IMG/VR virus record: IMGVR_UViG_3300020048_000021
Span: 105,848 to 169,847 of that record
Strand: one strand, 5' to 3'
Length of the DNA stretch: 64,000 bases
Source of the DNA: a virus
Lineage: Duplodnaviria; Heunggongvirae; Uroviricota; Caudoviricetes
Shown: one piece after another, positions 4,703-51,728 of the stretch
Layout of the letters: the number at the start of each line of letters is the position of its first letter
Position numbering within the stretch: position 1 is the stretch's first letter
The notes under the pieces: model-generated
Told to the model about the DNA's origin: nothing
What the model saw: only the letters and a program-made list of their open reading frames with translations
The model's database searches: none
Program-made: the position numbers and the translations under genes

Positions 4703-5560
4703 CTAGGTTAATTTATTATTTATTTTATCTGTTCTTGCTTTATAAATCGACTCACGACTTTCTACAGTAGCAACAAAAGGCAACAGTAATAAAGCAGGAT
4801 CATATTCTTTGGGATTTCCACTAATGGTTGTCCCAAAGTCATATGATTTTGAGTTAGCATGATGATTGTTATGATATCCTTGACCCCAGTTAGTATATGC
4901 CATTACTGTAATGTTTCTGCTATGATCATTAGTGTCAAAATTACGATATCCCCAGTTTGGAGAATGACACAGTGTATTGACAAAGCTTTCTTGATATAAT
5001 CCAATCACAGCTGGTAGCATTAATCCAAATAGCAGTACTTGCCAGCTAATTAGTCCTACGATAATATATGTACACAATATTATTACTCCATAGTTTTTTG
5101 CAAACCACACATGAGTGGGATTTCTTAATAAGTCTATTACTGAACGAGCATTGAAATAAGAATTCCAGTCCCACATCCATCCATGCCATGAATACCACGT
5201 ACCATGTACTGGACTATGAGCATCTTTTAAGGTGTCACAGTACTTATGATGACTGCCCCGATGTACTGATGCCCAGCCAAGTGGGCTTCCCTGTATTGCT
5301 AAACATGCTATATATAATAATATAGGCTCTAATCCTTTTTTTGCTATGAATGTCATATGACTTACATAACGATGTAATACAACATGAACTCCAATACCGT
5401 ATATCAATGTCCATCCAATTACAAAACTTAATACGTTAATCAATGATATTCCTATCATGACAGTATAACAAATTAATCCTAGCAATGTTACAGCATGAAT
5501 TGGATATAGTATATAAAACAGAAAATCTGTTCCGGTTTTTTCTGTAACAGTATTACTCAT
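4703..5560 (-). CDS. membrane fatty acid desaturase (delta-9 acyl-CoA/acyl-lipid desaturase family)
   Basis: Three histidine boxes HRYVSH, HRGSHHKY(x)DAHSP and HNNHH closely resembling stearoyl-CoA desaturase boxes HRLWSH/HRAHHKF/HNYHH; multiple TM segments. Confidence 0.8.
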   Translation of the reverse strand: MSNTVTEKTGTDFLFYILYPIHAVTLLGLICYTVMIGISLINVLSFVIGWTLIYGIGVHVVLHRYVSHMTFIAKKGLEPILLYIACLAIQGSPLGWASVHRGSHHKYCDTLKDAHSPVHGTWYSWHGWMWDWNSYFNARSVIDLLRNPTHVWFAKNYGVIILCTYIIVGLISWQVLLFGLMLPAVIGLYQESFVNTLCHSPNWGYRNFDTNDHSRNITVMAYTNWGQGYHNNHHANSKSYDFGTTISGNPKEYDPALLLLPFVATVESRESIYKARTDKINNKLT

Positions 5561-12818: not shown

Positions 12819-13319
12819 ATGAAAAAAATATTTCTAGACACTGAATTTACAGATTTTATTGACTGTGAGTTGATTAGTATCGGCGCAGTTGATGAATCTG
12901 GCTTTGAATTTTATGCTGAAGTTACTGACTTTAGACGAGAAGCCTGTAGTTCATTTGTTAAAGAAACGGTTATTCCATTATTGGGACAATATCCCAAATC
13001 GTATGTGAACACAAAACAACGAGTAGCTGAAGTATTTTATGAATGGTTGCAATCATATCGTCACGATGGGTGTATACTATGTGTTGACTATCATGCTGAT
13101 TGGGATTTAACCTTAGATTTACTAAGTTTAGTGCCTGATGCTGATATTAGTTTTATTCAAGGTCGAATGATATGGACTGATCTAGATCATCAGAAAATTG
13201 AACAGTATTGGGTCGATAGTCAACTACCACGACACATGGCGTTATATGATGCTCGTGCTAATCGTATAGGCTACGATGAAGAGAATGGTTACCGAGAAGA
13301 TAATGAAGAATCGTTATAA
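12819..13319 (+). CDS. DEDD-family 3'-5' exonuclease (DnaQ/oligoribonuclease-like)
   Basis: N-terminal motif FLDTEFTD (Exo I), later HxxxD-type residues; 166 aa. Confidence 0.55.
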   Translation: MKKIFLDTEFTDFIDCELISIGAVDESGFEFYAEVTDFRREACSSFVKETVIPLLGQYPKSYVNTKQRVAEVFYEWLQSYRHDGCILCVDYHADWDLTLDLLSLVPDADISFIQGRMIWTDLDHQKIEQYWVDSQLPRHMALYDARANRIGYDEENGYREDNEESL

Positions 13320-18451: not shown

Positions 18452-18522
18452 GAAGCATTCGTATAGCCGGAAGTACGCCGTCAATTGAGACGGAAACGTG
18501 GGTTCGACTCCTACATGCTTGT
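18452..18522 (+). pseudogene. aberrant tRNA-like element (6-nt or 8-nt anticodon loop, 1-72 G-G mismatch, no CCA)
   Basis: acceptor GAAGCAT/ATGCTTG, D GTAT/GTAC with AGCCGGAA loop, T-arm GTGGG-TTCGACT-CCTAC; anticodon region CCGTC-AATTGA-GACGG; flanked by long-range pairing AGGCTGATGACG (18375) with CGTCAGCCT (18528). Confidence 0.45.
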
Positions 18523-18638: not shown

Positions 18639-18715
18639 GGTGTAGATAGCTTAATTGGTAAAGCCCCGGATTGTGAAGCCGGCGGATGCGGATTCAAATT
18701 CCGTTCTACACCCCA
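18639..18715 (+). tRNA. tRNA-His (GUG) with encoded G-1
   Basis: extra 5' G pairing with discriminator C73, acceptor GTGTAGA/TCTACAC, anticodon loop TTGTGAA, T-arm GCGGA-TTCAAAT-TCCGT, CCA. Confidence 0.75.
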
Positions 18716-18900
18716 AAGTACATAAGATAGCGACCAGTAAGGCACGTGACTGAAAAATCGCCGTAAAGTCGAGGTGGGGCCGGTAGATAACCTCGTGAAA
18801 CACCGGCCAGAAATTTAGTAACCATAGTCGGCATGTGTTCCCACCGTGCATCAACCGACTTAAAATAAAGCTAGGACGCATGCTGTCGTTAACGGTGGGG
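18716..18900 (+). ncRNA. structured non-coding region with nested and interleaved helices (candidate ncRNA)
   Basis: GAGGT(18764)/ACCTC(18790) interleaved with GGCCGGT(18772)/ACCGGCC(18810), giving pseudoknot topology; long-range CCCACCGT(18851)/ACGGTGGG(18888); no ORF. Confidence 0.35.
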
Positions 18901-18998
18901 CCATATTGAAGTACATTACATACACAATCGGGTAGACATGACAGTATTGCTTGAGATACAGCAGTGTAACATCATGGTAGTGTATTTCAATATGGTAA
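18901..18998 (+). repeat. inverted-repeat hairpin element (CCATATTGAAGTACA / TGTATTTCAATATGG) enclosing about 62 nt
   Basis: 15-bp stem with one G-U wobble. Confidence 0.6.
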
Positions 18999-19166
18999 TC
19001 ACATAATGGTGAGACAGGAGACAAGGTGAGATTAACTTCTCAGTGAGCGTATCTCTCTATCCAACGCAGATAGGTCGGTTGAGTTCGATTCTCAGCAGTG
19101 ATTACTATATTGAAACACATTTGCGGGTATTCTGAAAGGACTAGTCCCTAACAATGTGACGACCAA

Positions 19167-19346
19167 GTGTATTTCAATATGGTATCGCTACTTAGTTGCA
19201 ATGGTCACACGCCCTTGACTGAGTAGAATGTTACCATATTGAAGTACATTGATGCCTGACTGAAACGGGCATATAGAGTAACTGGCACTAAGAGAGGTTC
19301 GATTCCTCTGACTCTTATTTCAGATCAGTGTATTTCAATATGGTAA
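19167..19346 (+). repeat. three alternating copies of the 19-nt repeat (R 19167-19184, R' 19231-19249, R 19327-19346) enclosing a T-arm-like hairpin AGAGG-TTCGATT-CCTCT
   Basis: sequence read; the central R' can pair with either flanking R. Confidence 0.6.
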
Positions 19347-19391
19347 TTGACTAATTTATGAATAACTACATATATACAATGTGAAATTTAT

Positions 19392-19399
19392 TATAAATA
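19392..19399 (+). promoter_or_regulatory. T4-type late promoter-like box TATAAATA upstream of lipoprotein gene
   Basis: exact TATAAATA about 31 nt upstream of ATG 19431. Confidence 0.35.
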
Positions 19400-19430
19400 C
19401 ATGGCAGGTCTTTCATAAAGGAAAATAATC

Positions 19431-19544
19431 ATGAAGAAAATAGCAGCAGTTTTAGCAATCGTATTGTTGAGCGCATTGGGTTTATCAGCTTGTGACAACA
19501 AGGGAATAACAGCACCAACGTACAACAGCAACACAGCTAACTAA
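19431..19544 (+). CDS. small lipoprotein (37 aa)
   Basis: MKKIAAVLAIVLLSALGLSACDNKG..., lipobox LSAC, RBS AAGGAAAATAATCATG; below ORF-track length cutoff. Confidence 0.55.
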   Translation: MKKIAAVLAIVLLSALGLSACDNKGITAPTYNSNTAN

Positions 19545-19562
19545 GTTTTTGTTTACATTGTA

Positions 19563-19588
19563 GTATAACTTGAGGGAACATTGTTCCC
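19563..19588 (+). terminator. rho-independent terminator
   Basis: GAGGGAAC-ATT-GTTCCCTC hairpin followed by ATTTTATT. Confidence 0.65.
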
Positions 19589-19641
19589 TCATTTTATTAG
19601 ACACTAGCTTAGTATTTAAAATAATACAAGGAACAAAGTAA

Positions 19642-21033
19642 TTGGCTAATTTAATTTTATGGAACTGTCTCAATGTAGATCATGCATCGATTCGACCTGC
19701 TGGGCCACATCAATTGGCTCATTGGTTACAATTGAACGGTTATACCGTTAAAGTTATAGATTTTTGTCACTCAATGAGTACCGATAATCTGGTCAATATT
19801 ACATTAAAGCATATTGATCTTAATACAATCGGAATAGGAGTTAGTACTACATTTTGGAATAATACCAATAATATTGATCCTAAATCTTTATCAGTAACAA
19901 TGGAACCAGAATGGGTAATAAATGCTAGAGATAGATTAAGTCATTTAAATGTAAAATGGATATTGGGCGGAGCTAATAGTACAAATGTATTCAGTTACGA
20001 TTGGAAAATATTACATGGTCACGCAGAAGATTCATTATTACAATTTATGGATGAACATTCGTCTAAAATTAGCGTAAGACCTCAATTTGATATTAAAAAT
20101 CTAGAAAATTGTTTTTACGATGATTTAGCTATACAAAGTACAGAAGTATTACCAATAGAATTAAGTAGAGGATGTCAGTTCAAATGTAAATTTTGTCGAT
20201 ATCCATTATTGGGAAAGAAAAAGAATACATATATACGAAATTATAAACTTATAGAAACTGAGTTTGTTGAAAATTATGAACGTTATGGAATCACAAAGTA
20301 TTTTTTCTTAGATGATACCGTAAATGAAAGTATTGAAAAGATAGAGGCGTTGGCCGAAATGGCACAACGATTGCCATTCAAACTTAATTGGTTTGGATAT
20401 AATAGATTAGACTTGATAGGCACACGACCATCTACTATTGAGTTATTGAAACATAGTGGATTAAAAAGTGCTTTTTTTGGAATAGAAAGCTTTCATTCTA
20501 AGGCCAGCAAGATTGTGGGCAAAGGATGGAATGGAGTTCATGGTAAAGAATTTTTATTAGAGTTACGTCAGAAATGGGGTAATGACATAAGTTTTCATCT
20601 GGCGTTTATAGCTGGACTTACTGGCGAAACATCTGAAAATTTAGATGATACTCAACGTTGGTGTATAGATAATAATATTGCTAGTTGGAGATTTTCTGGA
20701 TTGCATATTAGCAAAAGTGAAAATCTTGTTTGGAAAAGTGAATTCGATTTAAATCACGGATTATATGGGTATAAATTTCCATACGATGATAAACCAGAAT
20801 TCTGGACTAATAGTTTATGGACTTCTCAGTCTGCGGCTAGTAAAGCAATTCAATTACTAAAAGATTCACAGAAACATATTAAGCCAGCAGTTTGGTTATT
20901 GGGCGAGTTATCGTCATTGGGATATGATTTAGATCATTTAATGAGTAAGTACAAACATGAACTTGACTGGGACGATATTAAAAATCGTAATAAGATATTT
21001 GTTGAAAAATACGTAACAACTCAATTGAAATAA
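19642..21033 (+). CDS. radical SAM enzyme with N-terminal B12-binding-like domain
   Basis: CxxxCxxC motif in GCQFKCKFCRY; N-terminal Rossmann-like segment typical of class B radical SAM; TTG start with RBS AAGGAACAAAGTAATTG. Confidence 0.65.
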   Translation: MANLILWNCLNVDHASIRPAGPHQLAHWLQLNGYTVKVIDFCHSMSTDNLVNITLKHIDLNTIGIGVSTTFWNNTNNIDPKSLSVTMEPEWVINARDRLSHLNVKWILGGANSTNVFSYDWKILHGHAEDSLLQFMDEHSSKISVRPQFDIKNLENCFYDDLAIQSTEVLPIELSRGCQFKCKFCRYPLLGKKKNTYIRNYKLIETEFVENYERYGITKYFFLDDTVNESIEKIEALAEMAQRLPFKLNWFGYNRLDLIGTRPSTIELLKHSGLKSAFFGIESFHSKASKIVGKGWNGVHGKEFLLELRQKWGNDISFHLAFIAGLTGETSENLDDTQRWCIDNNIASWRFSGLHISKSENLVWKSEFDLNHGLYGYKFPYDDKPEFWTNSLWTSQSAASKAIQLLKDSQKHIKPAVWLLGELSSLGYDLDHLMSKYKHELDWDDIKNRNKIFVEKYVTTQLK

Positions 21034-21041
21034 ATATTATT

Positions 21042-21614
21042 ATGAAAAATATACTATGGTGTCCAATAGATTTGCCCAAGTGTCCGGTTATTCCTAAATT
21101 ACAGCCATCTGTAAAGTGGCACTTTTGGGAATTTGCAAAACTTATTGATAGTCATGAAAATCCTTACGCTATTACTGACTTTACTAAAGAAATAAAAACA
21201 GAATATCCTGAATTAGTAGAATGGTTTAAATTATTTCCGTATACTAGTATACGTAATATTAAATTGAATCATCAACTTACAGCAGTTAAAGCTCATATTG
21301 ACTTTACAAAGCCCGATTTAGATCCTAAGTTACATAAAAACAACGTTGAAAATGAACCATGTGGTTACAGAATTCTTCTTAGTGGTTCGAGAAATAACAA
21401 ACTATATGTAGTTCATAACGGAGAAAAGATATACTGTGAAATGCCAGATGATACCGATACGTATGTGTTAGGTCATACTTGTACATTACACGGAGTAGAT
21501 GATGATATTGATCGATGGACTCTATTCACTCATTTTGAAATAGATTCAGAAAACCATAAATCATTGTTAAATACGTCTTTACAAAAATATTCTAATTATG
21601 CTATAATTCGTTAA
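21042..21614 (+). CDS. hypothetical protein, possible cupin/2OG-Fe(II) oxygenase-like partner of the radical SAM gene
   Basis: 190 aa, HxD (AHIDF) and downstream His plus Asp-rich VDDDID segment; 8-nt gap to upstream gene. Confidence 0.35.
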   Translation: MKNILWCPIDLPKCPVIPKLQPSVKWHFWEFAKLIDSHENPYAITDFTKEIKTEYPELVEWFKLFPYTSIRNIKLNHQLTAVKAHIDFTKPDLDPKLHKNNVENEPCGYRILLSGSRNNKLYVVHNGEKIYCEMPDDTDTYVLGHTCTLHGVDDDIDRWTLFTHFEIDSENHKSLLNTSLQKYSNYAIIR

Positions 21615-21642: not shown

Positions 21643-21671
21643 TTGACAGTAAATCATAATTCAGTTATAAT
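21643..21671 (+). promoter_or_regulatory. sigma70-type promoter TTGACAGTAAATC-17-TATAAT upstream of tRNA-Asp
   Basis: TTGACA 21643-21648, TATAAT 21666-21671. Confidence 0.65.
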
Positions 21672-21688
21672 AGATTTATAAAGAATTT

Positions 21689-21764
21689 GGATTGGTAGTT
21701 CAATGGTTAGAGCACCGCCCTGTCACGGCGGAAGTTGCGAGTTCGAGTCTCGTCCAGTCCGCCA
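21689..21764 (+). tRNA. tRNA-Asp (GUC)
   Basis: acceptor GGATTGG/CCAGTCC, anticodon stem CCGCC/GGCGG loop CTGTCAC, T-arm GCGAG-TTCGAGT-CTCGT, G73, CCA. Confidence 0.8.
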
Positions 21765-22005: not shown

Positions 22006-22203
22006 ATGTCAGACACTATTAAATTAATCAATGATCAGATCGAAGCATGGCAAACTGAAGATACAAAGTTTATCTCTGGAAATTCGTCTGCTGGTACTCG
22101 CTCACGTAAAGCGTTGGGTGAACTATCTAAATTGATTAAGATTCGTCGTAATGAAATTACTGCAGAAAAAAACGCTCGTAAAGAAGCTAAAGCAGCAAAG
22201 TAA
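22006..22203 (+). CDS. hypothetical small basic protein
   Basis: 65 aa, lysine/arginine-rich C-terminus, RBS AAGGAATTACAATG. Confidence 0.45.
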   Translation: MSDTIKLINDQIEAWQTEDTKFISGNSSAGTRSRKALGELSKLIKIRRNEITAEKNARKEAKAAK

Positions 22204-22209
22204 AGTTTT

Positions 22210-22295
22210 GGAGTAGAAGCATCAATGGTGATGCAGTGGACTGTAAATCCGCCGCCCTTCGGGCACGACTGGTTCGATCCCAGTATACTCCACCA
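22210..22295 (+). tRNA. tRNA-Tyr (GUA), type II
   Basis: acceptor GGAGTAG/ATACTCC (one mismatch), D GCAT/ATGC, anticodon loop CTGTAAA, variable arm GCCC-TTCG-GGGC, T-arm ACTGG-TTCGATC-CCAGT, CCA. Confidence 0.7.
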
Positions 22296-22390: not shown

Positions 22391-22485
22391 GCTAGATAGC
22401 ACTGGTGTGCGGCTGAATCTTATAAGTTCGGGAGAGTGGTCAGATGGGCTGCAACGGATAGGTTCGAATCCTATATCTAGTACCA
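22391..22485 (+). tRNA. 95-nt tRNA-like gene with Sec-like architecture, anticodon apparently UAU
   Basis: 8-bp acceptor GCTAGATA/TATCTAGT, D-stem GCAC/GTGC with 4-nt loop, GGCTGAA motif, 6-bp anticodon stem CTGAAT/GTTCGG loop CTTATAA, about 26-nt variable region, 4-bp T-stem TAGG/CCTA loop TTCGAAT, CCA. Confidence 0.45.
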
Positions 22486-23124: not shown

Positions 23125-23673
23125 ATGAATACTTGGATTACATCTGATCTTCATTTTAGTCACGCGAACATTATGAAATTTTGCCCAGAATCACGGGCAC
23201 GATTTGTGTATGACGGCGTAGACTATATGAACGAAACGATGATTAAAGAATGGAATGAACTGATTGACCCAAATGACTTGACGTATATACTGGGCGATTT
23301 TGCGTTTTGTAACGCTCAAAAAGCAACCGAGATTGCTCGTAGACTAAATGGCACTAAGATTTTGGTAGAAGGAAATCATGATCGTAAATCACTAAACGAT
23401 CCTACATTTCGTAAATGTTTTAAAGAAGTTCACAAATATCTAGATATCAATTATAATGGTACTAAGATTGTGATGCTTCATTATCCAATTGCCGAATGGG
23501 ATCAGATGCATCGTGGAAGTGTTCATTTTCACGGTCATCTTCACGGTAACGTTAGCGGAATGGAAAAGTATCGTTGTCGTGATATGGGAATGGATGCAAC
23601 GGGTCGTATTGCCATTAGCATGGAAGAAGCTATTACAGACGCATTGACTGGTGAAATTAAAAGTCATCACTAG
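23125..23673 (+). CDS. calcineurin-like metallophosphoesterase
   Basis: N-terminal DLHFSH, GDFAF, GNHD motifs of the metallophosphatase fold. Confidence 0.65.
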   Translation: MNTWITSDLHFSHANIMKFCPESRARFVYDGVDYMNETMIKEWNELIDPNDLTYILGDFAFCNAQKATEIARRLNGTKILVEGNHDRKSLNDPTFRKCFKEVHKYLDINYNGTKIVMLHYPIAEWDQMHRGSVHFHGHLHGNVSGMEKYRCRDMGMDATGRIAISMEEAITDALTGEIKSHH

Positions 23674-23728: not shown

Positions 23729-24106
23729 ATGGGCTTTGTAATTAAACTTGATAAACTAGAATGGATAGAATCCATTAGAGCGGCTATTCGTGCAGAAGGG
23801 TGGACTGGTACTTCTGGTTGTAAAGAGTGGGCCAAAAAGACCTATGATGCCACTCTGAATTACAATTGCTATGGTAATATGTCTAGCATTAAGTTTAAGA
23901 CAGAAGAGATATGTCAGAAATTTGCTAAAGTATATGAAATTCCATACTTGACCAATGTACAGAAATTACAGGAAGATCACATGTACAAATTGTTGATGAG
24001 TGTGACTGAACTGTTAGAACGACCATCCTCGAATAGTATTGAGATTATTAAATCTGATATACTCAGTGCCATTAACAATATTAAAGCAACCTACGGAGTT
24101 AAATAA
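23729..24106 (+). CDS. hypothetical protein
   Basis: 125 aa ORF. Confidence 0.4.
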   Translation: MGFVIKLDKLEWIESIRAAIRAEGWTGTSGCKEWAKKTYDATLNYNCYGNMSSIKFKTEEICQKFAKVYEIPYLTNVQKLQEDHMYKLLMSVTELLERPSSNSIEIIKSDILSAINNIKATYGVK

Positions 24107-25014
24107 TGAATTCGTTAGAATTAAAAACCTTCGTTGAAGAAAATCCAAAATTGGTTTCTAAGAAGGTAGCAGGAGATGGAATCTACGTACTGAAATACAA
24201 ACGTCGAGTATTCTATGACAAATTGTGGAATGAATTTCTAGAAGAATGTCGTGGTACTATTGTCGATGAAGATTTTAATGTCGTTGCTCGTCCTTTTACA
24301 AAGATATATAATTTTCGAATCGAAGATAAGTCTCCTGTTTTGTCAGATGATACACTTGTTACCGCTTATCGCAAGGTAAATGGTTTCATGGTCGCAGTGA
24401 CTTGGTACAATGATGACATCTTGGTGTCTACCACTGGGTCTACTGATTCGCCCTATGTTGATATGGCACGTGAAATGATGGTGAAAGAACAGCCATGGGT
24501 CAACTGGGTATCTGCTATCAGCATGAATCAGGGTTACACCATGATGTTTGAGTGTGTACATCCCGACGATCCACACATTATCCCAGAACAAACAGGAATG
24601 TATTTTCTGGGTTGGCGTGAGAACACATGGGACTCTAAGGTCGAGGGATTTGGCGGAACAATTCAAGATCACTGGCAAAAGTATGCGGTGAGTTTCTTGC
24701 GTTGTAAGTGCGCTGAATCTTTTCAGACTTCTATCGATGAACTGGTAGAAATGTCTAAGACTGTTAAGCACGAGGGTTTCGTTTTCTATACAAAAGATGA
24801 AGTGTCGGCAAAGATCAAGTCGCCGTACTATTTGATCAAGAAGTTTGTAGCTCGTAACCCACGTACTGACAAGTTGATGAGAGCAGATATCAAACAATCA
24901 ATAGATGAAGAATACTATCCATTGATTGATCATATTCAAGCAAACATTGTTGAGTATACTGCCCTAGACGAGCAAGCTCGATTGTCATGGGTTCGTGAAT
25001 TTTTGGAGCGATAG
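24106..25014 (+). CDS. rnlA: RNA ligase 1 (T4 gp63 / RnlA-like)
   Basis: segment ECRGTIVDEDFNVVARPFTKIYNF aligns with T4 Rnl1 [28 protein letters not shown]; adjacent to other RNA-repair genes. Confidence 0.65.
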   Translation: MNSLELKTFVEENPKLVSKKVAGDGIYVLKYKRRVFYDKLWNEFLEECRGTIVDEDFNVVARPFTKIYNFRIEDKSPVLSDDTLVTAYRKVNGFMVAVTWYNDDILVSTTGSTDSPYVDMAREMMVKEQPWVNWVSAISMNQGYTMMFECVHPDDPHIIPEQTGMYFLGWRENTWDSKVEGFGGTIQDHWQKYAVSFLRCKCAESFQTSIDELVEMSKTVKHEGFVFYTKDEVSAKIKSPYYLIKKFVARNPRTDKLMRADIKQSIDEEYYPLIDHIQANIVEYTALDEQARLSWVREFLER

Positions 25015-26573: not shown

Positions 26574-27350
26574 ATGAAATTCTTAGTGCAGTTTAATTTA
26601 ATTCATGAAATGGGTCTTGCTCAAGTTCGTGAAGCTATTAGTTCTTACCCACATCAATACGTAAGCGTCATTCCATTCTCTAACGAGATTATCTCTGATG
26701 AGTCGGTTGAAGGCACTGACTATCTTGCTTATGGTAGTACATTGTTTATCAAACTTGGACACGAACGTGGATGGCAGGGTGTTTATTTTGACTATGAGAA
26801 TTTCAATTACGAAACCGCAGTTAAACATCGCACAGATATGCTCAATAATGAAGTTATACTGTCTGCAATCGACGTAATTCCGTTTCTTGAAGAATCTAAA
26901 ACAGATACGTGGTTCATTCGTCCTTCGCTTGATTTAAAGCATTTTAACGGTCAAGTTATCGACAGAGTAGAGTGTATTACATGGCTGAAAGACGCTATGC
27001 AATGTGCTTCTAGTGGGTCATATCAGATATCCGAGGACTTAAAGATTGTATTGGCACAACCAAAAAATATCCAAGCCGAATGGCGATGGTTCATTGTCAA
27101 TGGAAAAGTAGTATCTGGCGCAATGTATCGCTGTCGTGGTCAATTAGTTAAGATTCGTGAGCTAGACAAAGAAGTAATCGACGAAGCACAGAAATTGGCT
27201 GATGGATGGTTACCACATCGTAATTGCGTTATGGATACTGCATTGGTAGATGATAAGTTATCGGTGATTGAGTTCAATTGCATAAACGGTAGCGGATTTT
27301 ATGGACATGATGTTAAAATTATTTTCAAAGAATTGTACGAAAACGCTTGA
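26574..27350 (+). CDS. hypothetical protein (possible ATP-grasp-like fold)
   Basis: 258 aa; weak resemblance only. Confidence 0.3.
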   Translation: MKFLVQFNLIHEMGLAQVREAISSYPHQYVSVIPFSNEIISDESVEGTDYLAYGSTLFIKLGHERGWQGVYFDYENFNYETAVKHRTDMLNNEVILSAIDVIPFLEESKTDTWFIRPSLDLKHFNGQVIDRVECITWLKDAMQCASSGSYQISEDLKIVLAQPKNIQAEWRWFIVNGKVVSGAMYRCRGQLVKIRELDKEVIDEAQKLADGWLPHRNCVMDTALVDDKLSVIEFNCINGSGFYGHDVKIIFKELYENA

Positions 27351-28164: not shown

Positions 28165-29316
28165 TCAAAGCTTGAATAACTTCAAGTGTTCGTGAATACG
28201 GTTCAATGGTTCATCCCAATCGCCAATAGTTGGCTGTCTAAAAATACGACACGATGGATACCACGGACTGTCTTCACGATGTAGTAACCATCTCCAACAA
28301 TTTCCGAATTGATTCAACGGTAGTAACAATGGTTGACCCATTGCACCAGTTAAATGTGCAACAGCAGTATCAATCGATACGACTACATCTAAATTATGAA
28401 TCAATCCCGCAGTATCATTCCAATTTGTAATCGAAAGTGGATACGTGTTTAATCCTAGTTCAATTAATTTATCAGATTGTTCTTGATCGCAGTCAGCTTG
28501 TAAGCTTATCCATTCATAGTTTGGATTACGTTTAACTAATTCAAGCATCTTTTCAAATGGAATAGACTTGTGTTGATTGATCCAACTGTCACGACGACCA
28601 GACCAACAAAACCCAACTCTAAGTTTAGTTTTGGTACCTAATTTTGTTTGCCAATTCTGAATTGATTGTGGGCCAGCACTGATGTATTTTATTTCAGTTG
28701 GAAGATTCTCATACGTAATTTTTAGTACGCCGGGAATACTCATCATTGAAATCCAGTAATCAAATTCTGGTAATATTTCTTCATAAGAGTATACTTGTAT
28801 TGAATCTTTGAACGACATTTTAAACAGTACTTTAAGCACACTTTCACATTGAATAATGACATCTGTGCCTAATAATTTTAATTGTGTAATGAATCGAGAG
28901 AATTGAATATTGTCACCATGACCCTGTTCACACACAATAAGCAATCGTTTATTGTTTAAATCTTCTCCTGACCATCGTGGTTGTTCAAATCGTGGACTTA
29001 ATCCATTCAAGTGTTCGAATTGCCAACGCTTTTCGTATTGCTCCCATCCACGAGTTAAGTCTCCTGATAGTAAATAAGCAACTGCTAAATTGAATTGAGC
29101 TATGCTGTCAGTTGGATCAATGTCAATGGCACATTGCAAGAATCTGATTGCTCTTTCTGGATGTCCCATTTCTCTAATCACATTACCGTAATTGGTATAT
29201 GCAGAACCTAAGTCAGGAAATTGAGCAAATGCTTGGGCATATAAATCAATTGCATCTTTTGGTCGTGAAGTGGCTCTAAAATGAGCGGCTTGTTCAAATA
29301 GTTCTATTAATGTCAT
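28165..29316 (-). CDS. TPR-repeat protein fused to glycosyltransferase family 9 (heptosyltransferase-like) domain
   Basis: N-terminal TPR-like helices; C-terminal EQGHGDNIQFSRF and DTAVAHLTGAMGQPLLLPL resemble GT9 motifs. Confidence 0.55.
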   Translation of the reverse strand: MTLIELFEQAAHFRATSRPKDAIDLYAQAFAQFPDLGSAYTNYGNVIREMGHPERAIRFLQCAIDIDPTDSIAQFNLAVAYLLSGDLTRGWEQYEKRWQFEHLNGLSPRFEQPRWSGEDLNNKRLLIVCEQGHGDNIQFSRFITQLKLLGTDVIIQCESVLKVLFKMSFKDSIQVYSYEEILPEFDYWISMMSIPGVLKITYENLPTEIKYISAGPQSIQNWQTKLGTKTKLRVGFCWSGRRDSWINQHKSIPFEKMLELVKRNPNYEWISLQADCDQEQSDKLIELGLNTYPLSITNWNDTAGLIHNLDVVVSIDTAVAHLTGAMGQPLLLPLNQFGNCWRWLLHREDSPWYPSCRIFRQPTIGDWDEPLNRIHEHLKLFKL

Positions 29317-30257: not shown

Positions 30258-30806
30258 ATGACGCCCGATAACATAAATTCAACATTAATTCAGATTGTAG
30301 ACTCGATTGATGTTGAATCTATTGTAGAATGCTTTCAATCTATGAAAGATATTATTCAATTCACTGAGTCTGGTCACAAGGGCAGTCAATCCGGACTTCA
30401 ATATTTATCAGAAGAAGATCCACATACTAGCGCCGTAGGTCGAGGCAAGGGTCGAGATCATGAATACACATCATTAAATCCCTTATTTGTAGGAACCATT
30501 TTCGAAACCATCATTAATAAATATAAGTTCACACGAACCAGATTAATGTGGGTTAATCATATGTCGTGCTATAGTATGCATAGAGATCCTAGTCCACGAG
30601 TACATATTCCTCTTATCACCAACGAACAATGTTATTTTATATTCAAACATGGATTAATACAGCATTTTCCAGTAGGTTATGTGTATTATACTGACACCAG
30701 ACACGATCATACATTTGCAAACTGTTCAGAAGAAAGACGATTACATTTAGTTGGCGCAGTTGATGATAATTGGATAACTGATAGATTGACAATAAATAAG
30801 AATTAA
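30258..30806 (+). CDS. hypothetical protein, possible cupin/2OG-Fe(II) oxygenase-like
   Basis: MHRDPSPRVH and HDH segments. Confidence 0.3.
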   Translation: MTPDNINSTLIQIVDSIDVESIVECFQSMKDIIQFTESGHKGSQSGLQYLSEEDPHTSAVGRGKGRDHEYTSLNPLFVGTIFETIINKYKFTRTRLMWVNHMSCYSMHRDPSPRVHIPLITNEQCYFIFKHGLIQHFPVGYVYYTDTRHDHTFANCSEERRLHLVGAVDDNWITDRLTINKN

Positions 30807-32368: not shown

Positions 32369-33238
32369 ATGATCACGGTACGCGGCTTTGAAGATAAATT
32401 CTGGACATTTCCCGGTGGGGAACGTTCAGTCAAATTAACCCCGAATGAAAAACAAATTGCTACACAACGAGTTTTTGATGCCACGCCCGCTGGCGAATGG
32501 CCTGTATTTGAAATGCGTATGGACTTTCGTGGTTCAGACGATTTAGTGGATATGATGCTGGCAGTAAACGCTCTACGCAATGCGTATGGGCATGAAATTG
32601 AGTTAACATTGAATGTGCCATATTTCCCATTCTCTCGTCAAGATCGTGTGATGACTGGTGGAGAGTCGTTTGGACTTCAAGTGGTTGCTGATATGATTAA
32701 ACTGTGCAATTTCAAACGTGTTACTACGCTTGATATTCACAGTGATGTAGCTCGCGCAATGTTCCCAGCAGGCGTGTTTGGGAATGTATCGCAAGACACA
32801 GTGTGGGCTACTCGCATCAAAGACTTGACACACTTGGCAGAGTTGGAACTCAACGGAAAAACCGTTATTGTATCGCCTGATGCCGGCGCACTCAAGAAAA
32901 TTTACAAAGTAGCCGCTGCTACAGGATTGCCAGTAGTAGAGGCTAAAAAGATTCGTGACGTTGCCACAGGGCACATTGTCAAGACTGAAATTGATGGCTC
33001 ACAACTTAGTGAGTTTGAACAAGTAGTTATCGTTGACGATATTTGTGACGGTGGACGTACATTCGTAGAACTTGGTAAAGTCATTCGTGATAGCGGGTTT
33101 CGGGGTAGATTAGTACTGTGTGTAACTCACGGTATTTTCTCGAAAGGTCTGGATGTGTTTACTGAGTACTTTGATGAAATTCACACAGTAAACAATATCG
33201 GTGGGGTTGATCTGGTCGCATTTAATAGTGTAAAGTAG
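32369..33238 (+). CDS. ribose-phosphate pyrophosphokinase (PRPP synthetase)-like enzyme; candidate ADP-ribose pyrophosphate synthetase (Adps) of NARP1
   Basis: PRPP-synthetase/PRTase-type architecture including VVIVDDICDGGRTF PRPP-binding loop; directly upstream of NAMPT-like gene. Confidence 0.6.
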   Translation: MITVRGFEDKFWTFPGGERSVKLTPNEKQIATQRVFDATPAGEWPVFEMRMDFRGSDDLVDMMLAVNALRNAYGHEIELTLNVPYFPFSRQDRVMTGGESFGLQVVADMIKLCNFKRVTTLDIHSDVARAMFPAGVFGNVSQDTVWATRIKDLTHLAELELNGKTVIVSPDAGALKKIYKVAAATGLPVVEAKKIRDVATGHIVKTEIDGSQLSEFEQVVIVDDICDGGRTFVELGKVIRDSGFRGRLVLCVTHGIFSKGLDVFTEYFDEIHTVNNIGGVDLVAFNSVK

Positions 33239-33267
33239 TTGACAATAAATCAGTATTTTGATATAAT
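33239..33267 (+). promoter_or_regulatory. sigma70-type promoter TTGACAATAAATC-17-TATAAT in front of the NAMPT-like gene
   Basis: TTGACA 33239-33244, TATAAT 33262-33267. Confidence 0.6.
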
Positions 33268-33298
33268 ATTTACATAGACTAAAGAAAAGGAAAAGAAA

Positions 33299-34798
33299 AT
33301 GAAAATTACAGCACTCACTTCAATGGACTCGTACAAACTGGGTCACGGGGAAATGTACCCCGAAGGCACTACTAAAGTTTACTCAAACTTTACTCCACGT
33401 TCGCTCAAGCATTTGAACATGCCTGATCACTGGAAAGCAGATAACAAAATTGTTTGGTTTGGATTGCAAGGTTTTCTGCACGAACTCAACACAGTTTGGA
33501 AAGAGACATTTTTCGATTTACCCGAAGATGAAATTTGTGACGAGTTTCTTGAATTCGTAGCACCATTTGTCGGGCCCAACGGTTTCAATATTGAACGTAT
33601 TCGTGAATTACATCGTATTGGATACTTGCCACTTGAAATCAAATCTCTGCCAGAAGGATCACGAGTGCCGATTGGTGTGCCAGTATTGACGGTTACTAAC
33701 ACTGTAGCATCAGCATTTTGGTTGCCTAACTTTCTTGAAACATGGCTCTCTGCTGAGTTGTGGAAATCATCGACTTCTGCCACAATGGCACGAGTATATC
33801 GTAAAATTATCGACTCATACGCTGATGCTACAGGCGGCAGCAAAGAGTTTGTCGTATGGCAAGGTCATGACTTCTCAATGCGTGGCATGTCCGGTATTGC
33901 CGATGGTGCAAAATCGGGTGCTGGTCATTTGTTGAGTTTTCTTGGAACTGACGTACTATCAGCAGTCAAGTATGTCAACGACTACTACCATGGTAAATCA
34001 ACCTTTGTTGGTGGTTCGGTGCCTGCTAGTGAGCATAGCGTAATGAGTTCTTCTAGCCGTGATGCTGAGTTGGATACATATCGCTACATCTTGAGCAAAT
34101 ACCCAAGTGGTGTTGTCTCACTTGTATCAGATACATACGACTTTTTCCAAGTGATCACAACATACGCCACGATTCTCAAAGATGATATTCTGAATCGTAC
34201 TCCTGACTCACTTGGCTTGGCTAAAGTTGTGTTTCGTCCTGATTCGGGTGATCCAGTCAAGATTATCACTGGCGATCCAGAGGCACCAGCGGGTTCACCT
34301 GAACATAAAGGTGCTGTTGAATGTTTGTGGGAAATCTTTGGTGGCACAGTAAACAATAAAGGGTACAAAACTCTGAATCAACGTGTTGGTCTTATCTACG
34401 GAGATTCGATTACCATTGAGCGTTGCAAAGATATCCTGTTTATGTTGGCCGCTAAAGGATTCGCAAGTGACAACATTGTATTTGGTATCGGTTCGTACAC
34501 GTATCAGTTTGCTACTCGTGACTCGCTTGGGTTTGCTATGAAAGCTACTCATCGTGTTACTAACGGCGAAGGTGTTGCTATCTTTAAGGATCCTAAGACT
34601 GATTCTGGTACTAAGAAATCTGCTCGTGGCTTACTGTGTGTACATCGTAGCCCACTCTCAGGTGACTATGTATTAGTTGATGGTGTCACAGTAGAAGCCG
34701 AACGTTGTGGTGAGTTGAAGACTGTGTTTCTTGACGGTCAGATTCTTGTTGACGAGACATTTGAAACTATTCGTAAAAGGTTGACAGATAATGCTTAA
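33299..34798 (+). CDS. nicotinamide phosphoribosyltransferase family protein (NadV/NAMPT-like; candidate Namat of NARP1)
   Basis: 499 aa with N-terminal TSMDSYKLGH-type NAMPT motif and overall NAPRTase/NAMPT family length and layout. Confidence 0.7.
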   Translation: MKITALTSMDSYKLGHGEMYPEGTTKVYSNFTPRSLKHLNMPDHWKADNKIVWFGLQGFLHELNTVWKETFFDLPEDEICDEFLEFVAPFVGPNGFNIERIRELHRIGYLPLEIKSLPEGSRVPIGVPVLTVTNTVASAFWLPNFLETWLSAELWKSSTSATMARVYRKIIDSYADATGGSKEFVVWQGHDFSMRGMSGIADGAKSGAGHLLSFLGTDVLSAVKYVNDYYHGKSTFVGGSVPASEHSVMSSSSRDAELDTYRYILSKYPSGVVSLVSDTYDFFQVITTYATILKDDILNRTPDSLGLAKVVFRPDSGDPVKIITGDPEAPAGSPEHKGAVECLWEIFGGTVNNKGYKTLNQRVGLIYGDSITIERCKDILFMLAAKGFASDNIVFGIGSYTYQFATRDSLGFAMKATHRVTNGEGVAIFKDPKTDSGTKKSARGLLCVHRSPLSGDYVLVDGVTVEAERCGELKTVFLDGQILVDETFETIRKRLTDNA

Positions 34799-41804: not shown

Positions 41805-42836
41805 ATGAGAAAGATGGCAACAATTCGTCGTATTGACGAACTAAACCCTATTGAGGGTGCTGATAAAATTGAAGTGGCTACCGTTGGTGGATGGAAAGTC
41901 GTGTGTCAGAAAGGATTGTATGTAGTTGGCGATCTAGCGGTATATTGTGAGATTGATAGTTTCATTCCCACTGCCATTGCTCCATTCCTGACTCGCGACG
42001 GGCATTACCCCAAGACGTATGAAGGTATTGAAGGTGAACGTCTTCGCACTATCAAGTTGCGTGGGCAAATCTCTCAAGGATTGTTACTGCCCTTGAGTGT
42101 TCTTGCTGTTAATACTTCTTCAGGTGATTATCTTGGTGACTGGGAACAGTTTGAGAATGAAGATGTAAGTGAGAATCTTGGCATCGTCAAATACGAACCG
42201 CCAATGTCAGCACAACTTGCTGGTGTCGCTCGTGGTAATTTCCCAAGTCAGATTCCAAAGACTGATCAAGAACGTTGTCAGAATCTGAAGCGTGAGATTT
42301 CTCAAGCTGGTGATACTACGTTCGAGGTTACTGAAAAGTTAGACGGTTCATCAATGACTGTATATCTGATTGATGGTGTCTTTGGTGTATGTTCACGCAA
42401 TCTTGATCTGAAAGAAAGTGAAGGAAATACTTTTTGGAAAGTTGCTCGTGAGTTGGATCTTGAAACTAAGATGCGGACTATGGGTGATAACTTTGCTATT
42501 CAAGGTGAACTAATTGGCGAAGGAATTCAAAAGAATATCTACGAAATCAAAGGTCATAAATTCATGGTATTCGATATCTATGATATTGTCGTGGGTGATT
42601 ATATGATTCCAGACATGGTTCGTACTATCTGCAAAATGCAGAACTTGAACCACTGTCCTGTTATTCTGCCTCACGGTTCAGTAAATCATACTATCGATGA
42701 ACTGCTTGAATTAGCAGAAGGAAAGTCTGAGCTGAATGTCAAGACTGAGCGTGAAGGTTTAGTATTCAAGGCAGTGAATGGTAGTTTTACATTCAAGGCT
42801 ATCTCAAATAAATTCTTATTAAAGCACGGGGATTAA
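41805..42836 (+). CDS. ATP-dependent RNA ligase (KxDG nucleotidyltransferase superfamily, Rnl2-like)
   Basis: motif I EKLDGSSMTVY; N-terminal OB-like region; RBS AAGGAAATATTATG. Confidence 0.55.
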   Translation: MRKMATIRRIDELNPIEGADKIEVATVGGWKVVCQKGLYVVGDLAVYCEIDSFIPTAIAPFLTRDGHYPKTYEGIEGERLRTIKLRGQISQGLLLPLSVLAVNTSSGDYLGDWEQFENEDVSENLGIVKYEPPMSAQLAGVARGNFPSQIPKTDQERCQNLKREISQAGDTTFEVTEKLDGSSMTVYLIDGVFGVCSRNLDLKESEGNTFWKVARELDLETKMRTMGDNFAIQGELIGEGIQKNIYEIKGHKFMVFDIYDIVVGDYMIPDMVRTICKMQNLNHCPVILPHGSVNHTIDELLELAEGKSELNVKTEREGLVFKAVNGSFTFKAISNKFLLKHGD

Positions 42837-48018: not shown

Positions 48019-49173
48019 ATGCAATTTAATAAAACTTTAGTCGCATCAGCAGTACTCGCAATGGGCACAACTGTAGCGCAAGCAGCAGATTCGTCTGTAA
48101 CGCTTTACGGTGTTATCGACGCTGGATTTCAAGTATCTACTCAGAGTTTGGCCAATGGCTATTCAACGAGCAACGTAGGTATTGCCAGTGGTGTTCAACA
48201 AGGAAACCGATTTGGTATCAAAGGATCGGAAGATTTGGGAAATGGTCTACGTGCCACATTCACTCTTGAGTCTGGATTCAATCTTGGAAATGGCGCAAGT
48301 CAACAAGGTGGAACACTTTTCGGACGTCAATCATGGGTTGGGTTAGAAAGTGACAAATTGGGCTACGCTCGTTTGGGTAAACAATATAACTTTGCCACTG
48401 ACTACGTTGGTGCTATTGATCCATTCTTGTTAGGCTTCGGTCAAGCTAACATTGGTGCTACATTCGGTGCTGCCAACACTACACGTTACAACAACATGAT
48501 CAAATATCAATCACCAACATACTCAGGATTCACTGCTGGTGTCGGTTATTCATTTGCTAGTGGTCTAAGCACAGTCTACGCCGATAATGGTGCTGTAGCT
48601 GCTGCAAACACTTACAATTATGCTACAAACAACAACACTCGTGTACTGACAGTTGGCGGAAAATACGCAAGCGGTCCATTAACAGTGGTTGCTTCGTATG
48701 ACGTAATGTATGGTGCTGACAACGTAGTTGGTTCTAATGCCGCTAATCCAAAACAATGGATCTTCGGTGGAGCGTATGACTTCACAGTTGTAAAAGTTGC
48801 AGCCGCATATAGCCAAACCCGAAATGGTTGGATTAATGGTCAAGCTAGTGTAGACCCAACATTCAGTACTAATGCTTATGGTGGTGGTGCAGGTGGTGTA
48901 TTGTTCGACACTAACTTTGGTGCTAACAGCTACATGTTAGGTGCTACTGTTCCAGTAACAGGCGCTCAAAAAGTATTTGCATCATATCAGTATGCTACTC
49001 CAATTACAACATTGGCTAATGCTACTAACTTGAGCATCTACTCTGTTGGTTATCAATATGACTTCTCTAAGCGTACAAATGCGTATGCCTATGTTAGTCA
49101 GGCTCAGAACTATGCCTTCTTAGACGGTGCTAAAAGCACAGTTTATGGTGTAGGTTTACGTCACCAGTTTTAA
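48019..49173 (+). CDS. Gram-negative general porin (Porin_4 / Neisseria-Burkholderia type)
   Basis: signal peptide MQFNKTLVASAVLAMGTTVAQA, mature start ADSSVTLYGVIDAGF, alternating beta-strand pattern, C-terminal RHQF. Confidence 0.7.
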   Translation: MQFNKTLVASAVLAMGTTVAQAADSSVTLYGVIDAGFQVSTQSLANGYSTSNVGIASGVQQGNRFGIKGSEDLGNGLRATFTLESGFNLGNGASQQGGTLFGRQSWVGLESDKLGYARLGKQYNFATDYVGAIDPFLLGFGQANIGATFGAANTTRYNNMIKYQSPTYSGFTAGVGYSFASGLSTVYADNGAVAAANTYNYATNNNTRVLTVGGKYASGPLTVVASYDVMYGADNVVGSNAANPKQWIFGGAYDFTVVKVAAAYSQTRNGWINGQASVDPTFSTNAYGGGAGGVLFDTNFGANSYMLGATVPVTGAQKVFASYQYATPITTLANATNLSIYSVGYQYDFSKRTNAYAYVSQAQNYAFLDGAKSTVYGVGLRHQF

Positions 49174-50720: not shown

Positions 50721-51728
50721 ATGTCAACCAAAAAAATCTTAATAGTAACTGATAATTTACCAAATCAAATTAACGGTGTAGTCACCACATTCAAAAATAT
50801 TGCATCATATGCAGAAAAAGATGGATATGAATTATGTCACATAAATCCTACTTTCTTTCATTATATAGATGCCCCTAGATATCCAGAAGTTAAGTTATCA
50901 TGGCCGTGGGGTATTGCTAAGTTGATCAGAGATCATAATCCCGATTACATACACATTGCCACCGAGGGTCCATTAGGTATTGCTGCTAGTAATTATTGTT
51001 GGAGAAATAATCTTCGTTACAATACTAGCTATCATACGAAATTTCCAGAGTTTTTGAAAAAGATTTACAATATTCCGGAATCTTTAACTTATCGATATGT
51101 TCGATGGTTTCATAAACACAGTGGTAAAGTATTGACCACTACTCAGACTATGGTTAATGAATTAAAAGCAAATGGTTTTATTGGTAAAATTTATGGATGG
51201 ACAAGAGGCGTAGATAAGACAGTGTTCATTGATGGTTTGCGAAATGAAGATATCAAAAATCAATCTATATTACTCAGTGTTGGTCGAGTTAGTAAAGAGA
51301 AAAATCTAGATGCCTTTTGTCAATTGGATATTCCAAATACGATTAAAATAATTGTCGGAGATGGGCCGTATCGAAAAGAATTAGAAATTAAATACCCAAA
51401 TGTAAAATTCGTTGGAGTTAAAACTGGCACAGAACTCGCTAGATATTATGCCAATGCTGACGTTTTTGTTTTTCCGAGTCGAGTAGATACATTTGGAATC
51501 GTCATGATTGAATCTATTAGTATGGGAACACCAGTGGCAGCTTATCCAGTGCCTGGACCGATTGACATCATTGAGAATAATGTAACCGGTATATTGAATG
51601 ATGATCTAGAATTTGCAGTGAAAGAATGTTTGCAATTGAGCAGAGGACAAGTCAAGAAAAATAGTAATAAATGGACTTGGGAAAATTGTTGGGAAATATT
51701 TAGAGACAATCTAGTTACATCAAAATAA
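50721..51728 (+). CDS. glycosyltransferase family 4 (group 1 GT)
   Basis: GRVSKEKNLD... and VFVFPSRVDTFGIVMIESISMGTPVAAY match the GT4 C-terminal EX7E-type block. Confidence 0.65.
   Translation: MSTKKILIVTDNLPNQINGVVTTFKNIASYAEKDGYELCHINPTFFHYIDAPRYPEVKLSWPWGIAKLIRDHNPDYIHIATEGPLGIAASNYCWRNNLRYNTSYHTKFPEFLKKIYNIPESLTYRYVRWFHKHSGKVLTTTQTMVNELKANGFIGKIYGWTRGVDKTVFIDGLRNEDIKNQSILLSVGRVSKEKNLDAFCQLDIPNTIKIIVGDGPYRKELEIKYPNVKFVGVKTGTELARYYANADVFVFPSRVDTFGIVMIESISMGTPVAAYPVPGPIDIIENNVTGILNDDLEFAVKECLQLSRGQVKKNSNKWTWENCWEIFRDNLVTSK

Follow-up and report, generated by a model that had tools for sequence, protein, structure and literature searches.

A radical SAM gene and a dioxygenase-fold neighbour among the tRNA genes of a T4-like phage: a possible two-gene accessory cassette

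Why should a T4-like phage encode a radical S-adenosylmethionine (SAM) enzyme and an oxygenase-like protein side by side within its tRNA region, do the two act together, and on what? The question is raised by a 64,000-nucleotide stretch of the IMG/VR virus record IMGVR_UViG_3300020048_000021 (positions 105,848 to 169,847; the window in what follows), in which a gene for a 463-residue radical SAM protein (gene 1) is followed at once by a gene for a 190-residue protein (gene 2, the partner). An initial annotation had described the pair as a class B radical SAM enzyme with an oxygenase-like partner that might modify tRNA or DNA bases; that observation is confirmed, and its interpretation is supported in part. 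The reading we prefer, with a rough probability of 0.4, is that the two genes form a self-contained accessory cassette of a T4-like phage, encoding two iron-dependent enzymes that functionalise unactivated C-H bonds and that are facultatively coupled.

Both open reading frames lie on the plus strand, and the signals around them are as follows.

19571..19591, plus strand: intrinsic-terminator-like hairpin with a 9-bp stem and then a T run, from a scan and the sequence
19598..19625, plus strand: candidate sigma-70-like promoter by consensus match, TAGACA-16-AATAAT, 10/12 matches, just 5' of the radical SAM gene
19630-19633, plus strand: Shine-Dalgarno sequence AGGA, 8 nucleotides 5' of the radical SAM start
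19642..21033, plus strand: gene 1, radical SAM enzyme, 463 residues, TTG start
21042..21614, plus strand: gene 2, Fe(II)/2-oxoglutarate (2OG) dioxygenase-fold partner, 190 residues, ATG start
21643..21671, plus strand: perfect sigma-70 consensus match, TTGACA-17-TATAAT, between the cassette and tRNA-Asp
21689..21764, plus strand: tRNA-Asp(GTC), the first tRNA 3' of the cassette

The hairpin ends a small upstream reading frame and forms the upstream edge of a self-contained unit of about 2 kb. Eight nucleotides separate the radical SAM stop codon from the partner start, and no strong Shine-Dalgarno sequence precedes the partner gene. Two features make the TTG start credible: homologues share the N-terminus MANLILW, and AGGA lies 8 nucleotides upstream. 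The promoter and terminator calls are consensus matches; taken with the 8-nucleotide gap, these putative sites suggest a discrete two-gene transcript and a separately promoted downstream tRNA, since the perfect consensus at 21643-21671 would give tRNA-Asp its own promoter. Neither frame is a chance one, as the radical SAM protein has 448 and the partner 81 homologues at E <= 1e-3, and nonsynonymous polymorphism (pN 0.17-0.24) is well under synonymous polymorphism (pS 0.68-0.83) in both genes against the orthologues in three related loci (L018, L019 and L106). We conclude that both are real genes under strong purifying selection.

Upstream of the hairpin is a reading frame for 37 residues (19432-19545, MKKIAAVLAIVLLSALGLSAC...), whose product has a lipoprotein-type signal peptide and a lipobox. 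It is the sole small reading frame nearby, and we rejected it as a precursor of a RiPP, a peptide made by the ribosome and modified after translation, because it is lipoprotein-like, is followed by the terminator and is not kept in related loci. A search for a B12 riboswitch or another known RNA upstream returned tRNAs only at Rfam gathering thresholds, and nothing credible in 18700-19660.

What kind of enzyme does gene 1 encode? Its predicted parts are these.

19642..20061, plus strand: N-terminal Rossmann-like domain of the cobalamin-binding-domain type, residues ~1-140
20134..20676, plus strand: radical SAM partial TIM-barrel core, residues ~165-345
20173..20196, plus strand: CxxxCxxC motif (C178, C182, C185), predicted [4Fe-4S] ligand site for SAM cleavage, at the start of the PF04055 match
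20677..21030, plus strand: family-specific, mostly helical C-terminal domain, residues ~346-463

The motif on which the initial annotation had relied, GCQFKCKFCRY, is present in the protein (SRGCQFKCKFCRY, RGCQFKCKFCRY), and its cysteines (C178-x3-C182-x2-C185) are invariant in 45 homologues. The Pfam profile Radical_SAM (PF04055) matches residues 172-340 with 43.7 bits against a cut-off of 29.5. The AlphaFold model (AF2; predicted local distance difference test score, pLDDT, 92.5) consists of an N-terminal Rossmann-like domain, a radical SAM barrel and a mostly helical C-terminal domain; thus motif, profile score above the gathering threshold and (beta/alpha)6 partial-barrel fold all place the protein in the radical SAM superfamily. 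No other cysteine is invariant, which argues for one Fe-S cluster and against an auxiliary site of the SPASM, twitch or methylthiotransferase (MTTase) kind. Invariant residues of the N-terminal domain are R18, G66, F71, W72 and G109-G110. The C-terminal domain (346-463), presumed to be the substrate-binding domain, is rich in invariant aromatics (W349, F368, Y375, W388 and W393).

On the assignment to class B, also part of the initial annotation, fold and profile point different ways. The N-terminal fold is present and aligns with the TsrM, CysS and MgmA structures, but PF02310 does not match the window protein; it matches weakly in 3/8 relatives (best E 0.035), and one paralogue reaches 3.6e-4. 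A profile of the N-terminal domain alone found no sequence match in the PDB, and on these grounds (no PDB match, weak PF02310 and in only 3/8 relatives) we rejected the B12-binding domain as proven by sequence. Classification by profile gave a similarly divided answer. All of the 15 top-scoring NCBIfam matches are to B12-binding/radical SAM families (among them PhpK at 5e-23, the ladderane-lipid family TIGR04072 over residues 16-361, HpnJ, BzaD, BchE, ApyD, AprD4, HpnR and MgmA), but every match is far below its curated cut-off and no named class B family reached it (PhpK 81.2/600 bits, TIGR04072 59.7/360, AprD4 23.3/500). The NCBIfam picture is alike for the paralogues, whose N-terminal domains align to BzaD, MJ_1487 and BchE. 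Because the architecture is common to class B enzymes and MTTases and the MTTase hallmarks are absent, the class B-type subgroup remains. Judged by its sequence, gene 1 encodes a radical SAM enzyme with a single predicted [4Fe-4S]/SAM site, in a virus-restricted clade of the B12-binding-domain (class B-type) subgroup. Use of B12 is not implied by this architecture, since AprD4, the only solved structure reached by sequence search, has the same fold, works without cobalamin and is not a methylase. Among the PADLOC defence models, the radical SAM protein gave a weak, core-only match to the candidate PDC-M51A (E 1e-8) and the partner gave none, and we set aside a defence or anti-defence assignment since that weak match was all that it yielded.

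The His/Asp motifs that the initial annotation had seen in the neighbour 8 nucleotides downstream prove to be those of an iron site.

21294..21302, plus strand: H85-x-D87, first two ligands of a predicted 2-His-1-carboxylate iron site, at the end of model strand 82-85
21489..21515, plus strand: H150, predicted third iron ligand, and R158, predicted to bind the 2OG C5-carboxylate, at the start of strand 159-167

All four residues are invariant in 43 sequences; among 65 more distant members, D87 and H150 do not vary and the conservation of H85 is 90% or higher. The iron-triad and Arg positions fit the strands of the partner model, which has the double-stranded beta-helix (DSBH) fold. From its sequence, the partner is therefore best described as a DSBH protein that retains an intact HxD...H triad for iron and has an Arg for 2OG binding, so that use of 2OG is predicted. 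An N-terminal segment, LWCPIDLP, is conserved and family-specific. None of the partner, the 43 close members and the 65 distant members matches a Pfam family, and at the sequence level there is no match to NCBIfam, PHROG or PDB entries either, distant members included. Profiles of the catalogued 2OG-oxygenase families (2OG-FeII_Oxy, P4H, AspH PF05118, AlkB and TET/JBP) gave no significant match to the partner. Comparison with the phage AspH-like family by hhalign gave a probability of 0.2%, and kinship to that family or to a 157-residue protein of locus L107 was rejected, as neither has profile support. An exhaustive profile search through distant relatives likewise found no Pfam placement; in a set of 1.84 billion representative proteins, it delimits the family to 266 clusters (50% identity). 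The partner family is a small uncatalogued DSBH family.

Do the two genes belong together? We compared the phage radical SAM superfamily, which is 26-72% identical to the window protein and comprises 45 lineages at 80% identity. An iron oxygenase is directly adjacent, on the same strand, in 12/45 of these lineages, where random placement over the same ±10 kb would give 4.4. The adjoining oxygenases belong to five unrelated families, and several of the oxygenase genes overlap the radical SAM gene by 4 nucleotides; the loci are as follows.

L018, L105 and L106: the partner family described here
L032, L035 and L078: AspH-like family PF05118, with 4-nucleotide overlaps in L035 and L078
L043: family c18, with an HxD...H motif
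L067-72: 2OG-FeII_Oxy_5-like/methyltransferase fusion
L040, L041, L045, L050 and L051: DUF3050, a haem-oxygenase-like di-iron family (PMC4520260)

Direct adjacency with the partner family itself is limited to the closest clade (the first three loci, 69-72% identity), in which the order is HNH endonuclease, radical SAM gene, partner. There, the 8-nucleotide spacing of the window is kept in L105 and L106, with an overlap in L018, despite different flanking genes. In three further loci (L009, L010 and L107), partner homologues are found 0.6-5 kb away from radical SAM relatives of a more distant kind. Co-occurrence across phages, which the initial annotation had put forward as a check, thus holds for oxygenases as a class and not for a strict pair, as each gene is also found alone. 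We think it somewhat probable that the two genes are functionally coupled, in a facultative manner.

A number of observations weigh against the cassette reading. Cobalamin binding by gene 1, and hence methyl transfer, does not follow from the fold. The cassette stands alone in the window, 14 kb from the nearest desaturase-like gene and 9 kb from the AspH-like one, and its surroundings show no complete conserved pathway. The adjacency statistic counts related lineages as independent, and because they are not, only about 6-8 independent events underlie it. Between tRNA-Arg(TCG)/HNH and tRNA-Thr(TGT)-Asn-Arg(TCT) is a single slot that both genes occupy in L018 and L105/L106; in this same slot, the radical SAM gene is found alone in L019 and L022, and the partner alone in L007. 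Near-complete radical SAM contigs of 383-385 kb have no match to the near-invariant motif patterns of the partner. Given these single-gene slots and contigs, the two are not obligate partners; strict co-occurrence is rejected and the genes are separable.

The single-gene slots and contigs are what one would expect if the two were unrelated neighbours, independent residents of a hypervariable island that is shuffled by homing endonucleases, and adjacent by descent in one clade. That adjacency with this partner is confined to relatives of at least 69% identity favours this explanation, as does the occurrence of nine partner loci without a radical SAM relative within the flanks examined (up to 10 kb). 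A highly conserved 186-residue HNH endonuclease, which in at least five of the relatives' loci (L018 9404-9964, L019 2788-3348, L022 11581-12141, L007 10604-11164 and L105 2214-2771) immediately adjoins the radical SAM gene, the partner or both, points the same way; it may mobilise or shuffle the cassette slot, and tblastn did not find it in the window. Mere neighbourhood does not account for the five oxygenase families that adjoin these genes at well above the expected frequency, often with 4-nucleotide overlaps, nor for the distant relatives within 0.6-5 kb of partner homologues, nor for a spacing kept between the window and L105/L106 though the flanks have changed. We regard unrelated neighbours as a less probable explanation than the cassette, though one to be taken seriously.

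Under the cassette reading, both genes would be translated from one early-type transcript. The gene 1 product would cleave SAM reductively to a 5'-deoxyadenosyl radical, which would abstract hydrogen from the substrate. With cobalamin bound, the enzyme would then transfer a methyl group as class B methylases do; without it, a B12-free radical rearrangement like that of AprD4 would take place. Methylation by gene 1 is thus something that we infer. The partner, with Fe(II), 2OG and O2, would hydroxylate or otherwise oxidise the same or a closely related substrate. The coupling would be facultative: in relatives, either gene is found by itself in the same slot, and in other phage lineages the radical SAM relative is paired with a different iron oxygenase.

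The swapping of oxygenases can be viewed in another way. By analogy with BchE/AcsF and HemN/HemF, which are anaerobic and aerobic routes to the same products, the radical SAM enzyme may be an O2-independent and the oxygenase an O2-dependent route to one product, and the phage could then act on its target in hosts across oxic-anoxic gradients. The related class B families include BchE, which has a di-iron oxygenase as its aerobic counterpart; the exchange of the adjacent oxygenase between unrelated iron folds would fit a need for an O2-using route and not for a specific protein-protein partner; and a lone radical SAM gene or a lone oxygenase in the same slot of different phages would be explained. 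However, the argument is purely analogical, and methylation followed by hydroxylation accounts for the adjacency equally well. We consider such isofunctional alternatives quite improbable.

On what, then, might the cassette act? The position inside the tRNA region, which the initial annotation had stressed, is plain: the pair lies between tRNA-His (end 18715) and tRNA-Asp (start 21689), and ARAGORN finds 32 tRNAs between 11.4 and 31.2 kb of the window. Other genes of relevance in the window are as follows.

4703-5560, minus strand: DesA-like membrane desaturase homologue (NCBIfam E 5e-14)
12819-13319: Rv2179c-like 3'-5' exoribonuclease
23125-23673: metallophosphoesterase-like protein, from sequence motifs only
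24106-25014: Rnl1-type RNA ligase
26574-27350: R2K-clade ATP-grasp protein
30258-30806: AspH/LpxO-family hydroxylase (PF05118, E 2e-5), a second, unrelated DSBH protein, 28 nucleotides 5' of tRNA-Met
41805-42836: second RNA ligase, with a PHA02142 OB-fold domain
52878-55079: rIIA homologue

The rIIA homologue and the Rnl1-type ligase support the label T4-like. Further points that count against our reading of the cassette come from this context. In 11/14 orthologue lineages (at least 40% identity), as in the window, tRNAs are within 1.7 kb; some lineages have them at 16-50 nucleotides on the same strand, and the L028 orthologue has them 16-17 nucleotides away on both sides, whereas most of the distant paralogues have no tRNA close by. 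Partner-only loci (L007, L008 and L107) have tRNAs at 13-33 nucleotides, and the tRNA island of the window also holds the Rnl1-type ligase, the exoribonuclease-like protein and the R2K ATP-grasp protein. Proximity to tRNAs, of the orthologues and of the lone partner alike, is what a translation-related role would predict, and it is the strongest argument for a target in the tRNA or translation apparatus, in which the radical SAM enzyme would C-methylate or otherwise alter a nucleoside of phage or host tRNA, a ribosomal protein or an elongation factor, and the dioxygenase would hydroxylate the same target. Decoding would then be tuned, or tRNAs shielded from host anticodon nucleases. The phosphoesterase of the window would fit this role, and so would the company kept in related large phages, where we observed genes for transfer-messenger RNA (tmRNA) and tRNAs with CTA (amber-reading) anticodons (L001 3350-3717 and 8302-8378; L029/L034 6717-7097; L107 3027-3415; L104 11323-11478) and, in L001, a split RF-1-like gene and a PTH2 peptidyl-tRNA hydrolase gene near the radical SAM gene.

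Other evidence makes a translation target unlikely. In three loci with an orthologue (L003, L031 and L032), the nearest 10 kb are free of tRNA genes. Neither protein has a TRAM, THUMP, PUA or other RNA-binding module, and the MTTase cysteine triad is lacking. Isoelectric points are near neutral (about 6.2-6.7 for the two proteins, with both family medians about 6.2). The location is unspecific, as the island also contains a TPR/GT9-like gene, desaturases, HNH endonucleases and many unrelated reading frames, and the tRNA-Asp of the window has a perfect promoter consensus of its own. We know of no characterised B12-binding-domain radical SAM enzyme that acts on nucleic acid. A narrower version, in which the radical SAM enzyme and the dioxygenase, jointly or as anaerobic and aerobic alternatives, install a novel C-methyl/hydroxy modification on phage tRNAs, is improbable; it would be the first case of such an enzyme acting on RNA, and would account for the persistence of both families within the tRNA arrays of large phages.

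We lean instead towards a substrate other than nucleic acid, which would be a metabolite of the host, a lipid or glycan of the envelope, or the side chain of a protein. This leaning follows from the absence of an RNA-binding module, the isoelectric points near 6.2, desaturase and AspH neighbours, tRNA-free orthologues and a recurrent IscA-like carrier. In structure comparisons, the partner is nearest to amino-acid and small-molecule hydroxylases, with AlkB-type structures ranking lower. The class B-type enzymes characterised so far all act, to our knowledge, on small molecules, lipids, tetrapyrroles or peptides/proteins. In related phages, members of the DesA-like and AspH/LpxO families turn up repeatedly close to the radical SAM gene or its partner. 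In tRNA-free phages (L031, L032, L035, L048 and L078), the radical SAM relatives lie in tight clusters that also encode desaturases, AspH-like proteins, radical SAM proteins of the twitch and other types, and a carbamoyltransferase or phosphomannomutase. The IscA-like Fe-S carrier family recurs near superfamily members in six loci. If the substrate is not nucleic acid, the cassette would sit among tRNAs because this region is the accessory-gene island of the phage group.

In one tRNA-free locus (L003 11378-15201), the orthologue adjoins genes for a DUF2201 (CobT/VWA-like) protein, an AAA_5 (CobS/MoxR-like) ATPase and an IscA/HesB-type Fe-S carrier. That orthologue is also near thymidylate synthase and DHFR genes, which would favour a role in DNA base hypermodification, with the pair modifying phage DNA bases or a nucleotide precursor to evade restriction. 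Both 2OG dioxygenases (TET/JBP) and radical SAM enzymes serve some phage DNA hypermodification pathways. However, td and frd belong to ordinary T4-type nucleotide metabolism, and in L003 they lie on the other strand. Genes that typify hypermodification pathways (DNA glycosylase-like, DpdA/TGT, kinase or transferase) are not linked to the pair, and no deposited phage with known modified DNA has a homologue. We find this explanation very improbable. The suggestion of the initial annotation that tRNA or DNA bases may be modified has no direct link to the genes, given the lack of an RNA-binding module, the isoelectric points, the structural neighbours of the partner and the tRNA-free orthologues.

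Several other features of the region deserve mention. Between 18027 and 19347 are five cassettes in which arms of about 20 nucleotides (CCATATTGAAGTACATT ... AGTGTATTTCAATATGGTAAT) pair into long stems around 32-95 nucleotides; two of the inserts carry the tRNA T-arm-like sequence GGTTCGATTCC and are called by neither ARAGORN nor Rfam. Folding predicts long stems that end in branched modules resembling tRNA (z -4.2 to -6.4); by this modelling, the cassettes may represent small, stable RNAs or tRNA-like (Y-RNA-like) elements. In the window, no gene of the Ro/TROVE type turned up, although relatives carry a DUF2828/DUF7788 protein. Among the tRNAs, Rfam detects one at 22210-22292 that ARAGORN missed, and two ARAGORN calls are irregular, namely a 'tRNA-???' at 18452-18522, whose anticodon has two bases, and a tRNA-Ile(TAT) of 95 nucleotides at 22391-22485, which may contain an insertion. 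Just 3' of the pair (22006-22203) is a gene for a histone H1-like Hc1 protein of 65 residues (PF07432, E 1e-11); a reading frame of 65 residues keeps that place in relatives, labelled Hc1 by Pfam in L109 and without a Pfam label in L105, and L104 has a 61-residue Hc1 gene at another place. Farther away, a Gram-negative porin (Porin_4, E 4e-44) is encoded at 48019-49173, with a GT4 glycosyltransferase at 50721-51728 and a TPR/GT9-like protein at 28165-29316 (minus strand); porin and glycosyltransferase genes suggest remodelling of the host envelope. PRPP-synthetase-like and NAMPT (nicotinamide phosphoribosyltransferase) genes lie side by side at 32369-34798 and constitute a phage NAD+ salvage module.

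How widespread are the two families? That the pair is unusual in a T4-like phage, as the initial annotation put it, is true of deposited genomes and not of environmental phages. Searches of 50,697 deposited phage genomes found no homologue of either protein by tblastn, and megablast of the DNA against deposited phages found no match. Among 185,579 species genomes (one each), the best radical SAM relative has 33% identity and lies on a contig of a metagenome-assembled genome, and the partner has no close homologue. We also looked for cellular homologues with informative operons and rejected the candidates, none of which exceeds 33% identity and which lie on such metagenome-assembled contigs. 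In IMG/VR, 62 loci have radical SAM relatives and 12 have partner relatives; both families are common in metagenomic T4-like and jumbo-phage contigs, and the longest carrier contigs measure 385 kb. Exact copies of the window's own proteins are encoded by metagenome contigs of ENA, JGI and Logan (up to 169,847 bp), and the closest structures in BFVD are 'COG1032' proteins of uncultured phages. In the literature, we found no paper on the family; a study of pelagimyophages merely mentions radical SAM cassettes and a core AspH gene (PMC7029224).

The kinds of enzyme are thus known, and what is new is the genomic pattern together with both families, which are essentially virus-only, uncharacterised branches of well-known enzyme superfamilies. 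The comparative pattern suggests a conserved piece of phage-directed chemistry in infected cells. Identity of the substrate could give a new auxiliary metabolic function, in the modification of a lipid, glycan, metabolite or protein; it could instead reveal a new tRNA modification, which is less likely and would be more striking. It would also tell whether these phages depend on host cobalamin.

Comparison with known systems places the pair as follows. In the class B methylases TsrM (6wte), CysS (9n1b), MgmA (9ccb) and TokK (7kdx), the C-terminal domain is unrelated to that of the window protein. AprD4 (6fd2), a radical SAM 1,2-diol dehydratase, is 16% identical to the window protein, which makes it as similar as the class B methylases are. 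RimO (4jc0) and MiaB (7mjv) have the same N-terminal fold and use it for an Fe-S cluster, whereas their three N-terminal cysteines are absent from the window protein, in which only C42 is (nearly) conserved within residues 1-140. The C-terminal TRAM of RimO and MiaB is absent as well, residues 346-463 being mostly helical at high confidence with no Pfam TRAM match, and NCBIfam MTTase matches are at E >= 0.02. The partner shares 10-18% identity with the nucleoside-antibiotic beta-hydroxylase 7v4p, BcmG (8xht), the proline hydroxylases 4p7x and 1e5r, and the prolyl 4-hydroxylases 4iw3 and 5c5t; beside such small Fe(II)/2OG hydroxylases, it is compact at 190 residues.

Class B radical SAM enzymes are paired with non-haem iron oxygenases in PoyB/C-PoyI, ThnK/L/P-ThnG/Q, Fom3-HppE and PhpK-PhpD. 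In these biosynthetic pairs, as in BchE/AcsF, both enzyme classes are co-encoded and act on one substrate scaffold. The biosynthetic pairs belong to multi-gene bacterial pathways with known substrates, whereas the phage unit consists of two genes; unlike them, it has no precursor peptide or scaffold genes, and the oxygenase families of its relatives are interchangeable.

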